DNA of 13,474 bases from Candidatus Aenigmatarchaeota archaeon (GTDB lineage: Archaea > Aenigmatarchaeota > Aenigmatarchaeia > CG10238-14 > SpSt-28): the NCBI GenBank assembly GCA_032249395.1, contig JAVVFY010000013.1, positions 1-13,474 on the forward strand, written 5' to 3'. The position numbers are program-made. Below, one piece after another: positions 1 to 3,000 of this stretch (positions are counted from its first letter, which is position 1; every line of letters starts with the position of its first letter).

Positions 1-3000
1 ACTAAAACTTGATAATCATTTAAATTATTAGGATTTGCTGTATTATCTATAGTTATTGCTTTTCTATAAATTCCATTAAAATTTTTTACATCAAAAAATC
101 CTCCTGCACAAGAAATTACTTGCTGACCTAAAGAAGAAACTTCTGTAGTTTGAACTTTTGGTAAATTTGTTAAAAAATAATAAACTATTATTCCACTAGC
201 AATAGTAAAGCCAATTAATAAAACGCTTGCTAGAAAAGTGGAAATTGATTTTAGACTCATAAAATAATATTGTTTTTTTAAATAGCTTTTCGCTACTTTT
301 TATGTATATAAAATGAGAAATTGAGAAGAATTAATCCTAAGCCTAAAACTCATTTTTCTTTTTGTTCAATGTTAAGAAAGAATAAACAAATCTAAAAATA
401 AAGTAGTCTCATCCTCAAGGCAAGGTTGATTCTAAATGCCTTAGAGGTGGGTGCCGCCTTGCACACAAAACTAAGGAGGTGATCCAGCCGCACCTTCCAG
501 TTGCCGGGTCGGTAAAGTTAAATCACCTCCTTACTCATCATTCGTCAGAGTCAAGCCATTATATCATCTACTTTACCAACCCTTACGGCTACCTTGTGGC
601 GACTTAGCCCCCCTCGCGGAGCTCCCACTCGACCCTTTTGGGGCCTCGAGGGAGCTCCACTCGGTTGGCTTGACGGGCGGTGTGTGCAAGGGGCAGGGAC
701 GTATTCGGCGAACGTGTTCATGGTGGCAAGATGATCTTTGGCTCTATTTCCTCATCTTTTAATCTGGAGTAGTGCATGCTAATCATTCTCACCTTACCAC
801 CATGATGACGTTCGCCTACTAGGGATTCCGGCTTCACGAGGGCGAGTTACAGCCCTCGATCCGAACTGGGCGCGCTTTTAGGGGATTTGCTCCCCCTTTC
901 GGGGTGGCATCCCATTGTAGCGCGCATTGTGACGCGCGTGTGGCCCAGGGCTTTCGGAGCTTTCGCCGAGAGAGCCAGCAGCTCAGCTCGTATACGGACC
1001 TACCGTCGCCCCCTCCTTCCTCCCACTTATCGCGGGCAGTCCCCCATGAGTGCCTCCCTTCCGGAGAAGGGAATGGCAACATGGGGCGGGGGTCTCGCTC
1101 GTTAACCGACTTAACGGCACGCCTCACGGTACGAGCTGACGATGGCCATGCACTACCTCTCGGCTCGTCTGGTAAGGTCTTCAGCCTGACCTTCATCCTG
1201 CCGTCAGCCCTGGTAAGATTCTCGGTGTTGAGTCCGATTGAACCGCACGTCCCACCCCTTGTGTGCCCCCCCGCCAATTCCCTTAAGTTTGGTGTAGGGG
1301 GAAGCACACCCTCTAGCCAATTCTGGCTTCGCCCCAAATTCACCCTTGCGGGCGTACTCCCCAGGCGGCCCGCTTAACACTTACGCTCCGCCACCGCACG
1401 CTCCCGAAGAGCGTGCGACAGCAAGCGGGCATCGTTTACGGCTAGGACTTTCCCGCATGAGTTAGAGAAAATCCTAGCCATATGGGAGCAAATCATATAT
1501 CAGAGGATTAGATATTCCTCATCTTTAGAATCGGAAGATACCCTAACTCATGTACCGGGGTATCTAATCCCGATTGCTCCCCTAGCTTTCGCCCCTCACC
1601 GTCGGACCCGTTCCAGGCAGCCGCCTTCGCCACTCACCCAGCAGGAGTCATATCATATTGCTAAGCTTTTTAATTTTTTCTGGGTGGAAAATTGTAATTT
1701 TTTCTCGAAAATTACGAAAATTGTTATTGCCTGTTATCCAAAATCTTAGAGAAATAACCTCAATTCCATTCTTTTTTGTTTTTAATTGATCATGTTTGAC
1801 AGTTGATGCCTTTATTCCCAAATCATCCAACATTTGAATTATTTGGAGGAGATATCTTTCTAAATCAGGTCTTAACTCTATAATTTTTGATGCTTTGAAC
1901 ACTATTTGTTTTGAATTACTTGAATCTCTAAAATATCCCTCATCATCAAATATTGCACCAAGAAATGAAGACTTTATTTTATCATCTCCTTTAAAGATCC
2001 ATTCAGGTATTGTAGTTGGTTGAGTAATTTTAGAACCAATTGGCGCGCCTCTTTCTGAAAGAAATTTTCCAACTCTGCTAGGGTATTGATACCTTAATAT
2101 TCCTCCTATAGAAGTCCCTACATTGTATTTGATATTACCGAAAGTTTTAATTACAAGTTCTTTGACTTTTCGTTGAAGAACATTGTTGGAATTTGTATAG
2201 ACGAAGTAATATTTGGTTTTATGGATTGAAGCATCGCCAAAGACATGACCAATCAATCTGGCAATCGCTGTTTCTCTCTCCATAAACTGTTTTTTAATGT
2301 TTATTTTAATTTTCTGACTCCTGCTGACTGGTGGTCCGCATGGGATTAACGGATTTAACCCCTTAGGGTGGATAGTGCAGTCTAAACACTAAAATAGAAT
2401 ACACTCTAGACTATGAGCTAAATCTTAATTCTAAAAATCATTTCATCGCATAAAAGCTCAAAGGTACGCACACTACACTATCCATTACCCCATGCGTACC
2501 GCTGCCCTCTCCCGGTCCCGAGCCTGGTAGTATCCCAGGCAAGCCCTGCAGTTTGCTGCAGGATTTCACCTGGGACACACCAAGCCGGCTACGGGCGCTT
2601 TAAGCCCAATAATCGTGACCACCACTCGGGGCGCGGGTATTACCGCGGTGGCTGGCACCCGTCTTCCCCACCCCTTCCTCGCCCTCCCGTTTTCAGAGGG
2701 CAACAGCCCCAGCAGAGCTGGGGCACTCCGGGTCCCCTCGTCGGGCGTTAGCCCATTGCGAAGGTTTCGCGCCTGCTGCGTCCCGTAGGACCTGGGCTCA
2801 TGTTTCAGAGCCCATCTCCGGGCTCCCACTCTCATGGCCCGTAGGCGTTATCGGCTTGTCGGGCCATTACCCCGACAACAACCTGATACCCCGCAGTCCC
2901 ATCCTCGGGCGGCTACGAACACCCTTTGAGGATAGGGGCCTTCCAGCACCCTATCCCTATGGGGTATTAGCCCCAGTTTCCCGGGATTATCCCCATCGGG

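Follow-up and report, generated by a model that had tools for sequence, protein, structure and literature searches.

The 16S rRNA gene of a hot-spring archaeon of the Candidatus Aenigmatarchaeota is interrupted by eight introns, several of them very short, and the question that the short ones raise is what they carry. A survey of the genome had described guide-like box C/D elements within the 16S mini-introns that are aimed at 16S rRNA itself, a view now supported by order-wide conservation, by co-variation, by matches to the Nanoarchaeum equitans sRNAs sR13 and sR11 and by the encoded machinery. We consider it likely, and with some confidence, that four mini-introns of 83, 87, 104 and 123 nt are box C/D guide sRNA genes, each nested as a bulge–helix–bulge (BHB) intron in the very 16S rRNA at which its guide is aimed. 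Coordinates refer to the window, by which we mean the whole 13,474-nt stretch of DNA that was analysed.

The 16S rRNA gene and its introns

The gene and its eight introns are as follows, the splice joints being those seen in metatranscriptome contigs from four runs.

474..3951 (ends approximate), minus strand: 16S rRNA gene with eight BHB introns
501..583, minus strand: 83-nt intron in helix 45; joint 500->584 in two of four runs among the joints listed
716..802, minus strand: 87-nt intron in the helix-43 loop; splice joint in three of four runs among the joints listed
961..991, minus strand: 31-nt micro-intron without cassette; splice joint in four of four runs
1289..1338, minus strand: 50-nt micro-intron without cassette; splice joint in two of four runs among the joints listed
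1449..1552, minus strand: 104-nt intron beside the 790 loop; splice joint in three of four runs among the joints listed
1632..2326, minus strand: 695-nt intron with a LAGLIDADG ORF at 1648-2283 (Pfam LAGLIDADG_3, E 8.8e-08); splice and circular joints
2363..2485, minus strand: 123-nt intron; splice joint in four of four runs
2995..3833, minus strand: 839-nt intron with a 267-aa ORF to which a Pfam scan matched no family; splice and circular joints

The match to Rfam RF01959 extends over 474-3110, but the gene does not start at 3110, the 5' domain having been drawn into an intron in that alignment; positions 1-112 of an intronless relative are placed by blastn at 3951-3840 and, together with the splice joints, put the true start near 3951. 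The borders of all eight introns are confirmed by joints, which skip 31, 50, 83, 87, 104, 123, 695 and 839 bases, and the survey had placed the four mini-introns, which lie on the minus strand, correctly, with RNA-contig joints that skip exactly 83, 87, 104 and 123 bases. Among the joints listed, circular ones are found for the 83-, 87-, 695- and 839-nt introns, that of the 83-nt intron (583->501) in all four runs and that of the 87-nt intron in two of the four. The 104- and 123-nt introns have none among the joints listed, and contigs cannot show absence. One 120-nt RNA contig spans 1445-1563 unspliced, with the 104-nt intron retained.

Read by eye, the mini-intron borders form BHB motifs of two 3-nt bulges with a 4-bp helix between them: GGGG/CCCU with bulges UA|A and AA|G for the 123-nt intron, CCCG/CGGG with GU|A and AA|A for the 104-nt intron, UCAU/AUGA with CA|U and AC|A plus an 8-bp outer helix for the 87-nt intron, and GCCG/CGGC for the 83-nt intron, in which the 5' bulge is somewhat relaxed. 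Fibrillarin, Nop5 and L7Ae are encoded on contig C2, at 1541-2185, 2453-3085 and 26982-27254, and the genome also has two EndA homologues and RtcB; a query for RsmA/Dim1 returned only a weak RrnaAD match (35 bits, profile positions 22-87). To our knowledge, RsmA/Dim1 is absent from N. equitans.

Guides, boxes and targets

The spacers of the 83-nt intron are complementary to the 3' end of 16S rRNA and to the decoding site, at the top of helix 44; the guide spacers of the 87-, 104- and 123-nt introns are complementary to helix 34, to the 790 loop and to a helix next to the 123-nt intron, respectively. The complementary runs are 9-12 bp long and end 1-2 nt from a box in all four introns, each of which has an internal D'/C' pair: CUGA-CGA-AUGAUGA in the 83-nt intron, CAGA-UUAAA-AGAUGAGG in the 87-nt intron, both CUGA-UAU-AUGAUUU and CCGA-UUCUAA-AGAUGAGG in the 104-nt intron, and UUGA-hairpin-GAUGA in the 123-nt intron. 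The boxes are separated by spacers of about 12 nt. The 83- and 104-nt introns have the canonical arrangement of AUGA, 3 nt and a 12-nt spacer ahead of D', and the spacer of the 87-nt intron measures 13-14 nt. There are terminal stems, and these co-vary. The terminal boxes of the 83-nt intron (C AUGAUAU with UUUA) are weak, and the 87-nt intron has AAUGAUU and AAGA next to its stem; we read no terminal C/D pair in the sequences of the 104- and 123-nt introns. The survey's description of these elements as mostly K-loops understates their architecture, which comes close to that of full C/D units; the motifs and complementary stretches that it quoted for the 104-, 87- and 123-nt introns are all present, and the positions 1567, 1154 and 2497 that it derived by the N+5 rule follow from the pairing registers.

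The 83-nt intron had been credited with a K-loop, which is indeed there, and left without a target; complementarity supplies two.

561..567, minus strand: C box AUGAUAU, at a RUGA-box position conserved in relatives
549..560, minus strand: D' guide AAUGGCUUGACU, pairing with 16S GUCAAGCCA (674-666)
535..548, minus strand: K-loop of D' box CUGA (545-548), loop CGA (542-544) and C' box AUGAUGA (535-541)
519..534, minus strand: D guide GUAAGGAGGUGA (523-534), then UUUA (519-522), in the place of which relatives have a D box UUGA
666..674, minus strand: target 1, E. coli 1405-1413; N+5 at window 671 (A1408)
472..483, minus strand: target 2, at the 3' end of 16S, which includes the anti-Shine-Dalgarno sequence; predicted site 478-480, register uncertain

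The stretch GGCUUGAC pairs with the decoding site GUCAAGCC (674-666), and UAAGGAGGUGAU is a 12-nt perfect complement of the 16S 3' end AUCACCUCCUUA (483-472). The terminal stem (570-582/506-518; fold z-score -4.6) co-varies among relatives, in which the boxes and guides are invariant, and the loop of the K-loop differs from relative to relative and, at position 544, also in RNA contigs, around constant boxes. The intron carries both guides by which an sR13 orthologue is recognized, against 16S 1405-1413 and 1531-1540, and on sequence grounds it is the counterpart of N. equitans sR13: its guide cores are the same as those of the published sR13 and of locus L116, the register of the second guide being off by 1-2 nt. 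In sR13, whose sequence is given in supplement 1 of PMC4644070, the same two guides are GGCUUGACU-CUGA against 16S 1405-1413 and GGAGGUGAU against the 3' end. In N. equitans, MALDI-MS and RiboMeth-seq revealed both Am1408 and Am1534, the latter guided by the sR13 D box, as described in PMC5389701, and it is from this counterpart that the numbering of target 1 and the assignment of Am1408 are carried over. The D position is degenerate (UUUAA or UUAAA) in the six sequences of genus g1 and in G013, so for at least the second of this intron's guides the outcome may be pairing without methylation; genus g1, with its degenerate D box, also has the longest match to the 3' end (12 nt).

The guide of the 87-nt intron is directed at helix 34.

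721..734 and 789..802, minus strand: terminal stem
781..787, minus strand: C box AAUGAUU
767..780, minus strand: guide
763..766, minus strand: D' box CAGA (degenerate)
750..757, minus strand: C' box AGAUGAGG
739..749, minus strand: second spacer
735..738, minus strand: D box AAGA
1147..1157, minus strand: helix-34 target GGUAGUGCAUG; N+5 at 1154, the registers of relatives pointing to the equivalent of 1153

Here GCAUGCACUAC-UC-CAGA pairs with GGUAGUGCAUG (1157-1147), in a part of helix 34 that we take to correspond to about E. coli 1050. The fold z-score is -4.0. When five versions of the intron from genus g1 are aligned, the D box next to the stem is AAGA here and AUGA in relatives, and the second spacer is unconserved; by eye, no match of this spacer to mature rRNA was noticed. 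Homologous cassettes stand in the same 16S context at 16 distinct loci.

In the 104-nt intron the guide is directed at the 790 loop.

1535..1543, minus strand: GGGUAUCUU
1531..1534, minus strand: first D-type box CCGA (CUGA in five relatives)
1516..1524, minus strand: C-type box AGAUGAGGA
1504..1515, minus strand: guide AUAUCUAAUCCU
1500..1503, minus strand: D' box CUGA
1490..1496, minus strand: C' box AUGAUUU
1484..1491, minus strand: UUGCUCCC
1561..1571, minus strand: 790-loop target GGGAUUAGAUA, by complementarity; N+5 at 1567

The sequence AAUAUCUAAUCC-UCUGA-UAU-AUGA pairs with GGGAUUAGAUA (1571-1561), and position 1567 in the 790 loop is presumably E. coli U788. Further stretches of this intron are directed at the exon out of N+5 register, namely UUGCUCCC against GGGAGCAA and a GCUAGG copy. 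The guide AUAUCUAAUCCU-CUGA resembles the D guide of N. equitans sR11, AUCUCUAAUCCA-CUGA, for which the predicted target is U766 in the numbering of its own paper.

The guide of the 123-nt intron is directed at the helix beside the intron.

2462..2473, minus strand: guide GUGUGCGUACCU
2458..2461, minus strand: D' box UUGA
2448..2457, minus strand: mini-hairpin
2441..2447, minus strand: C' box GAUGAAA
2491..2500, minus strand: target GGUACGCAUG, in the helix beside the intron; N+5 at 2497

The pairing of GUGUGCGUACC-UUUGA with GGUACGCAUG (2500-2491) consists of eight Watson-Crick and two G-U pairs. This cassette is kept in three otherwise diverged versions, all confined to one genus.

From these features the following course of events can be proposed. 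EndA would cut the BHB motifs and RtcB would join the exons and circularize the introns; the box pairs, folded as K-turns or K-loops, would be bound first by L7Ae and next by Nop5-fibrillarin; and the guide would pair with pre-16S rRNA, acting in cis as long as the intron is unspliced or in trans once it has been excised as a circle. Methylation of the 2'-O group is predicted opposite the fifth guide nucleotide upstream of D or D', that is, at window 671 (A1408), 478-480 (1534-1536), 1567, 1153/1154 and 2497. The pairing probably also times the folding of helices 44/45 and helix 24, as proposed for sR13.

Recurrence and co-variation among relatives

Searches of 118 genomes of the order, with reversed patterns as controls, found the sR13-type cassette in 48 genomes (against one reversed-control match), the helix-34 cassette in 21 (against two) and the 790-loop cassette in nine (against none); judged by these comparisons, the recurrence is far beyond chance. 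In alignments of relatives the guides and boxes are invariant, the loops vary and the terminal stems co-vary. Among 47 distinct sR13-type cassettes the distance of an upstream RUGA box from D' is exactly 15 nt in 36 and 14 or 16 nt in nine, and NUGA follows C' after 12 nt in 35 and after 13 nt in three; the search pattern imposed neither position and did not include the RUGA box.

Comparison of the relatives also shows that guide–16S complementarity has been kept by compensatory change. The helix-34 guide fits its own target at all 12 of 12 loci, which comprise three target variants (CACCAC/GUGGUG at seven, CACUAC/GUAGUG at four and CAGCAG/CUGCUG at one), and the A/G switch occurs within genus g1 and also within family f2. 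Variants of the decoding-site guide fit their own target best or equal best (GCC/GGC, CCC/GGG and ACC/GGU, with CGCC/GGCG in G018), and the 3'-end guides track the divergent 16S 3' ends of G011, G013 and G018, the pairs being CACCUCC/GGAGGUG, CACCAU/AUGGUG, CACUAC/GUAGUG and, in G018, CACUUAA/UUAAGUG. The 790-loop target is invariant in most relatives, so that it offers no such test of co-variation.

The sR13-type cassette is found in three different 16S intron sites, all of which, as read from their flanks, appear to fall between its two targets. It also lies in tRNA introns: six of 30 loci look tRNA-like (two of them inside Rfam tRNA matches), as do nine of 45 archaeal loci. The Rfam tRNA model matched around the cassettes of L041 and L044, ARAGORN found no tRNA around those of L041, L044, L056 and L032, and by manual reading the host would be tRNA-Ser(UGA). 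In G037 a distance of 35 kb separates the cassette from a 16S gene without a helix-45 intron, and in N. equitans and an Altiarchaeota MAG it is free-standing; action of the sR13-type cassette in trans is possible. The helix-34 guide is convincingly seen solely inside the helix-43 intron, and we therefore do not extend this possibility to it. The G018 copy of the 790-loop cassette looks free-standing from its flanks, and 16S is intronless in the four genomes seen of that genus. Matches in other contexts were set aside as chance or unclear, both for the helix-34 pattern (L070, L077, L082, L083 and L093) and for the sR13 pattern (L036 and L049), and six Nitrososphaeraceae and 13 bacterial loci without the second guide were dropped as chance.

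Within this genome alone the same elements do not stand out. Strict K-loops number three genome-wide, against 2-9 in shuffles; full C/D layouts number none by strict, none by medium and three by loose patterns, against 1-4 in shuffles; and a looser antisense scan gave 126 matches against 112 with reversed rRNA. Among 61 sites with a C-N11-13-D-N2-9-C layout, three have at least 9 nt of rRNA complementarity, against 1-6 in 21 controls, and all three fall in rRNA introns. The P-values given by the survey overstate the case, because genome-wide controls show no enrichment. Its finding that genome scans detect no free-standing canonical C/D gene holds, with the proviso that such scans can miss degenerate genes.

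Alternative explanations

For three of the four guides the site of pairing is at most about 25 nt (12-25 nt) away from the splice site of the guide's own intron, and such proximity would also be expected if the introns were helpers that act by pairing only, in which complementarity opens the exon for the BHB motif or for the order of folding, fibrillarin methylates nothing, and the boxes are at most handles for L7Ae. The 104-nt intron, in which most of helix 24 is either mimicked or matched in antisense, further than any N+5 register would call for, suits such a role, as does genus g1, where a degenerate D box in the 83-nt intron accompanies the longest 3'-end complementarity; a delay of folding has been proposed for N. 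equitans sR13 itself (PMC5389701). However, G007 retains at the site of the 123-nt intron a 31-nt BHB hairpin alone, with the target sequence the same, so the cassette is dispensable for splicing. The sR13-type cassette is also found in tRNA introns and in free-standing genes far from 16S, and the strict 12-nt spacing and conservation of the boxes suit a Nop5-fibrillarin ruler rather than simple antisense. The target sites of the orthologous sRNA are methylated in N. equitans, according to PMC5389701, and we regard pairing alone as an unlikely account of these introns.

The occurrence of the sR13-type cassette at three 16S intron sites and in tRNA introns, and the fact that three of the four cassettes adjoin a target, could alternatively mean that the guide is selfish cargo, a homing device for reverse splicing near its target with methylation incidental. 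Free-standing orthologues with the same guides exist, however, and guides follow changes in their targets over long spans, which implies that pairing is under selection in the host, beyond the moment of insertion; this explanation is very improbable. That UGA-rich motifs and complementarities of 8-10 nt arose at random in A+U-rich introns is scarcely credible in spite of the within-genome controls, given the counts among the 118 genomes, the compensatory changes in guide and target, and the conservation of box positions that lay outside the search pattern.

Relation to known systems

If the mini-introns are, as we favour, C/D guide genes within their own target, they resemble several known systems and differ from each. 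The N. equitans sRNAs that share their guides are free-standing and have canonical C and D boxes, whereas here the RNA is a 16S intron that BHB splicing frees in circular form, and its terminal boxes are weak (C AUGAnnn, with UUUA in the place of D). The intron of pre-tRNA-Trp in Euryarchaeota (Haloferax volcanii; Pyrococcus sR50) is likewise a BHB intron that is a C/D guide against its host RNA, as described in PMC7994747, but there both host and target are a tRNA, while here the host is 16S rRNA (or, in relatives, a tRNA read as tRNA-Ser), the target is rRNA, several cassettes occur in one gene, and cassettes move between hosts. Eukaryotic intronic snoRNAs are guides for 2'-O-methylation of rRNA that come from introns of ribosome-linked hosts (PMC7994747); they use spliceosomal introns and exonuclease trimming, in contrast to the BHB introns, the presumed cutting by tRNA splicing endonuclease and the circularization here, where the host is also the target gene. 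Circular C/D RNAs are known from Pyrococcus furiosus and Sulfolobus, again as described in PMC7994747, although from free-standing genes, whereas circularization here comes from intron excision. The 16S introns of the Thermoproteales are BHB introns, some with LAGLIDADG ORFs as in the 695-nt intron here, but the paper that describes them mentions no sRNA, snoRNA or methylation and gives no function to introns without ORFs (PMC4496867). A full-text search within literature available without subscription brought up no account of a C/D sRNA in an rRNA intron.

A more far-reaching scenario can be drawn from these comparisons, although taken as a whole it is doubtful. The C/D repertoire of this DPANN lineage would have moved into BHB introns, so that excision and circularization serve as sRNA biogenesis and pairing in cis with nascent pre-16S rRNA serves as an assembly checkpoint, with spread by reverse splicing. 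The guides would keep the 790 loop, the top of helix 44 and the 3' end from folding, methylation and splicing would then set these parts free, and guide-directed reverse splicing would have placed the cassettes beside their targets, as a prokaryotic parallel to, or forerunner of, intronic snoRNAs.

Archaeal rRNA mini-introns without ORFs have had no assigned function, and a cargo of guides offers a concrete and testable reason for their persistence. One guide cassette is evidently interchangeable among rRNA introns, tRNA introns and free-standing genes, and searches for C/D RNAs that mask rRNA and tRNA genes will call such lineages guide-less. Intron-hosted guides for rRNA methylation, as predicted here, would not be confined to eukaryotes or to the single case of tRNA-Trp, and if the predicted guides hold, these introns would be an archaeal counterpart of the intron-borne snoRNAs of eukaryotes.

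The 16S rRNA gene and its introns

The source genome (0.75 Mb in 25 contigs, approximately 31% G+C) carries its 16S rRNA gene on the minus strand of a stretch that recurs in DNA and RNA runs mainly from hot-spring metagenomes. The Rfam archaeal 16S rRNA model matches 474-3110 on that strand, but its 5' border at 3110 is wrong, with the 5' domain misaligned to A+T-rich sequence inside an intron. The actual first 112 nt are on the far side of an 839-nt intron, as reference positions 1-112 of a relative's intronless 16S rRNA map by blastn to 3951-3840, and the gene thus extends over approximately 474-3951. 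Contigs from four metatranscriptome runs (four studies), from which abundance is not readable, were aligned to 450-4000, and all eight introns are spliced.

Introns of the 16S rRNA gene, with borders from RNA contig joints
501-583, minus strand, 83-nt intron
716-802, minus strand, 87-nt intron
961-991, minus strand, 31-nt intron
1289-1338, minus strand, 50-nt intron
1449-1552, minus strand, 104-nt intron
1632-2326, minus strand, 695-nt intron
2363-2485, minus strand, 123-nt intron
2995-3833, minus strand, 839-nt intron

The borders given in the survey's finding for the four mini-introns of 83, 87, 104 and 123 nt are exact. Judged by eye, each of the four shows a BHB motif in which the cut follows the second nucleotide of the bulge. 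Genes for two EndA homologues, RtcB, fibrillarin, Nop5 and L7Ae are present in the genome. The 83- and 87-nt introns form circles, the back-joint being present in all four runs for the former and in two of four for the latter; back-joints of the 695- and 839-nt introns are likewise seen in two runs each. In RNA contigs of two runs, 3972 is joined to 450 through 17 additional letters, which fits a circular pre-16S processing intermediate. The 839-nt intron has a 267 aa ORF (2987-3790, minus strand) with no Pfam family match.

Guide cassettes of the mini-introns

The mini-introns have C/D-type architecture.

Elements of the mini-intron cassettes
83-nt intron, terminal stem of 13 bp
561-567, minus strand, 83-nt intron, C box AUGAUAU
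549-560, minus strand, 83-nt intron, 12-nt first spacer AAUGGCUUGACU
535-548, minus strand, 83-nt intron, D' CUGA, loop CGA, C' AUGAUGA
523-534, minus strand, 83-nt intron, 12-nt second spacer GUAAGGAGGUGA
87-nt intron: 14-bp stem enclosing C AAUGAUU, guide AGCAUGCACUACUC, D' CAGA, loop, C' AGAUGAGG, 10-nt spacer and D AAGA
104-nt intron: guide AUAUCUAAUCCU between two K-loops, CCGA-UUCUAA-AGAUGAGGA and CUGA-UAU-AUGAUUU
123-nt intron: GUGUGCGUACCU-UUGA, mini-hairpin, GAUGA

The first spacer of the 83-nt intron pairs with GUCAAGCCA of the decoding site (674-666), and the second contains UAAGGAGGUGAU, which is complementary over all its 12 nt to the 16S 3' end (483-472); both targets were missed in the survey. 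At the D position, UUUA takes the place of the relatives' D box UUGA. The guide of the 87-nt intron pairs with GGUAGUGCAUG of helix 34, that of the 104-nt intron is complementary to the 790 loop, with GGGUAUCUU and UUGCUCCC as extra complements of the helix-24 region, and that of the 123-nt intron is directed at GGUACGCAUG, located upstream of the intron at a distance of 12 nt. In predicted folds of all four, terminal stems are formed and guides are largely open (z-scores of -4.6, -4.0, -1.25 and -3.2 for 83, 87, 104 and 123 nt). RNA contigs of all four runs have T, not G, at 544 (plus strand), the first nucleotide of the D'-C' loop in the 83-nt intron; it is a neutral position, in line with the guide model.

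Within the source genome alone, the case against chance is weak. The full C/D layout gave no strict and no medium matches and three loose ones, against 1-4 in shuffles, and strict K-loops number three against 2-9. Among 61 sites with a C-N11-13-D-N2-9-C layout, three are complementary to rRNA over 9 nt or more (1-6 in 21 controls); all three are inside rRNA introns, of which the window holds two and the 23S gene the third. Since these counts fall inside the control ranges, the P-values put forward in the survey overstate what a single genome can support.

Recurrence across the order

The relatives' 16S genes are 1473-2662 bases long, with introns at shared sites. We searched 118 genomes of the order with sequence patterns, using reversed patterns as control. 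The cassette of the 83-nt intron (sR13-type) was found in 48 genomes (one control match), the helix-34 guide in 21 (two) and the 790-loop guide in nine (none). The sR13-type core gave 67 distinct sequences, of which 20 were removed (no 3'-end-type second guide; all bacterial, Nitrososphaeraceae or ORF-like). In the 47 kept, RUGA and NUGA boxes, which were not part of the search pattern, recur: the distance from a C-type RUGA to the D' downstream of it is exactly 15 nt in 36 sequences and either 14 or 16 nt in nine, 15 nt being three trailing box letters plus the canonical 12-nt spacer, and NUGA follows C' by 12 nt in 35 and by 13 nt in three. Seven sequences have UUUAA or UUAAA in its place (six in genus g1, one in genome G013).

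Within genus g1, terminal stems carry compensatory substitutions and D'-C' loops differ, with no change in boxes or guides. The three versions of the 123-nt site have diverged nearly throughout except in guide, D', hairpin and C'. Genome G007 has only a 31-nt BHB hairpin there, with exon sequence unchanged; the cassette is therefore unnecessary for splicing.

Co-variation of guides and targets

Guide-target pairing is under selection. The helix-34 guide matches its target in all 12 loci where both were seen, as CACCAC/GUGGUG (seven loci), CACUAC/GUAGUG (four) and CAGCAG/CUGCUG (one); the A/G variants occur in genus g1 and also in family f2, so the switch occurred more than once. Decoding-site guides and targets are GGCUUGAC with GUCAAGCC, GGGUUGA with UCAACCC (genomes G011 and G013) and GGUUUGAC with GUCAAACC (G049), and in each case the variant's own target is its best or equal-best fit. 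The decoding-site guide of genome G018, GGUUGGCGUGAC, is the perfect complement of GUCACGCCAACC, the target in the four other 16S genes of its genus. At the 3' end, AUGGUGA is found with GAUCACCAU (G011), GUAGUGAU with AUCACUAC (G013) and UUAAGUG with CACUUAA (genus g2). The 790-loop target is invariant, and hence permits no such test.

Several relatives (loci L001-L003, L006, L008 and L016; genera g2 and g4) lack the anti-Shine-Dalgarno CCUCC at the 16S 3' end, having GAUCACUCAGC, GAUCACUUAAU, GAUCACCAU or GAUCACUAC, and the sR13-type guide tracks every such change. In genome G006 (L010/L087), the helix-34 target GGUGGUGCAUG is directly followed by a further intron, and adjoins a splice site there too.

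Hosts of the cassettes

The cassette is not tied to a particular host. Of 30 sR13-type loci in the order, 22 occupy three intron sites of the 16S gene (10 after GCCGUA, one after GGGAAC and 11 near AAGUCG, further 5') and six are in tRNA-like genes, two of them within Rfam tRNA matches that we read as tRNA-Ser(UGA); the other two are inside ORFs and look like chance matches. Genome G037 has a 16S gene without the helix-45 intron, and its cassette lies 35 kb away in a tRNA intron. A scan of all prokaryotes, one genome per species, gave 58 loci, 13 of them bacterial chance matches. The 45 archaeal loci comprise 28 in 16S genes, nine tRNA-like and eight elsewhere: the N. equitans sR13 gene, one canonical free-standing copy (an Altiarchaeota MAG) and six coding-like Nitrososphaeraceae matches.

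The 790-loop guide of G018, 12 nt long, seems to belong to a free-standing gene: besides a GGC/GCC stem there is GAUGAUGA before the guide, then UUGA, a loop, AUGAUAG, a spacer and a second UUGA after it, and the upstream region is rich in A+T. The four 16S genes seen in this genus are all intronless. At locus L061 (genome G029), several C/D-like units seem to form an array that includes the 790-loop guide; no rRNA or tRNA match covers this guide, and an intron-bearing tRNA is some 480 nt away. From the tRNA-hosted and free-standing copies, trans action suffices for a guide; the closeness of 16S-hosted copies to their targets suggests that there may be a cis advantage, or that insertion may have been guide-directed.

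Other C/D-like elements occur in the source genome. A 79-nt 23S insert (contig C11:2638-2716, minus strand) forms a stem, and its boxes are spaced exactly 12/12 (AUGA-UAA-GGUCGCUCCCGA-AUGA-UUGA-AUGA-UUA-GCGGGGUAGCUA-UUGA). Over 10 nt, the first spacer is Watson-Crick complementary to positions 787-796 of mature 16S rRNA, perhaps fortuitously, because these lie in a self-complementary hairpin. ARAGORN places introns in 19 of 45 tRNA calls, some doubtful. In that of tRNA-Thr(UGU) (contig C1:71188-71287), UUGA-C-UGAUGA directly follows the anticodon-loop sequence, resembling the tRNA-Trp type of self-targeting guide.

Discussion

The guide cores of N. equitans sR13 (PMC4644070, supplement 1) are identical to those of the 83-nt intron. 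N. equitans sR13 pairs with 16S 1405-1415 and 1531-1540, its D' box directing Am1408 and its D box Am1534, both detected by MALDI-MS and RiboMeth-seq, and was proposed to time helix 44/45 folding in nanoarchaea without RsmA (PMC5389701). N. equitans lacks the helix-45 dimethylase; in the source genome the sole RrnaAD (RsmA/Dim1 family) match is weak (contig C2:4956-5165, 35 bits, profile positions 22-87). The D guide of N. equitans sR11, with a 16S U as its predicted target, resembles the guide of the 104-nt intron.

L7Ae would bind the K-turns and K-loops of the intron cassettes, and Nop5-fibrillarin would methylate the N+5 nucleotide at 671, at 478-480 (a degenerate D box leaves the register uncertain), at 1567, at 1154 (the equivalent of 1153 in relatives) and at 2497. 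The intron RNA would work in cis on the transcript that is still unspliced, in trans once it is a circle, or in both ways. Comparative recurrence, box spacing and co-variation bear out the survey's finding of guide elements in 16S mini-introns aimed at 16S rRNA itself, and we consider it likely that these cassettes are functional C/D guide elements, albeit with lower confidence in each single predicted methylated nucleotide.

The C/D sRNA contexts set out in a review (PMC7994747) are intergenic, overlapping or adjoining other genes, downstream of tRNAs and in tRNA introns, with rRNA introns unlisted there. A full-text search of literature outside subscription journals returned no C/D sRNA reported from an rRNA intron, nor did term look-up in PMC6009581, PMC4496867 and PMC3608112. 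The elements belong to a familiar class, the box C/D guide sRNAs, and include an sR13 orthologue; they vary from it in their host, the BHB introns of the very rRNA gene that they target.
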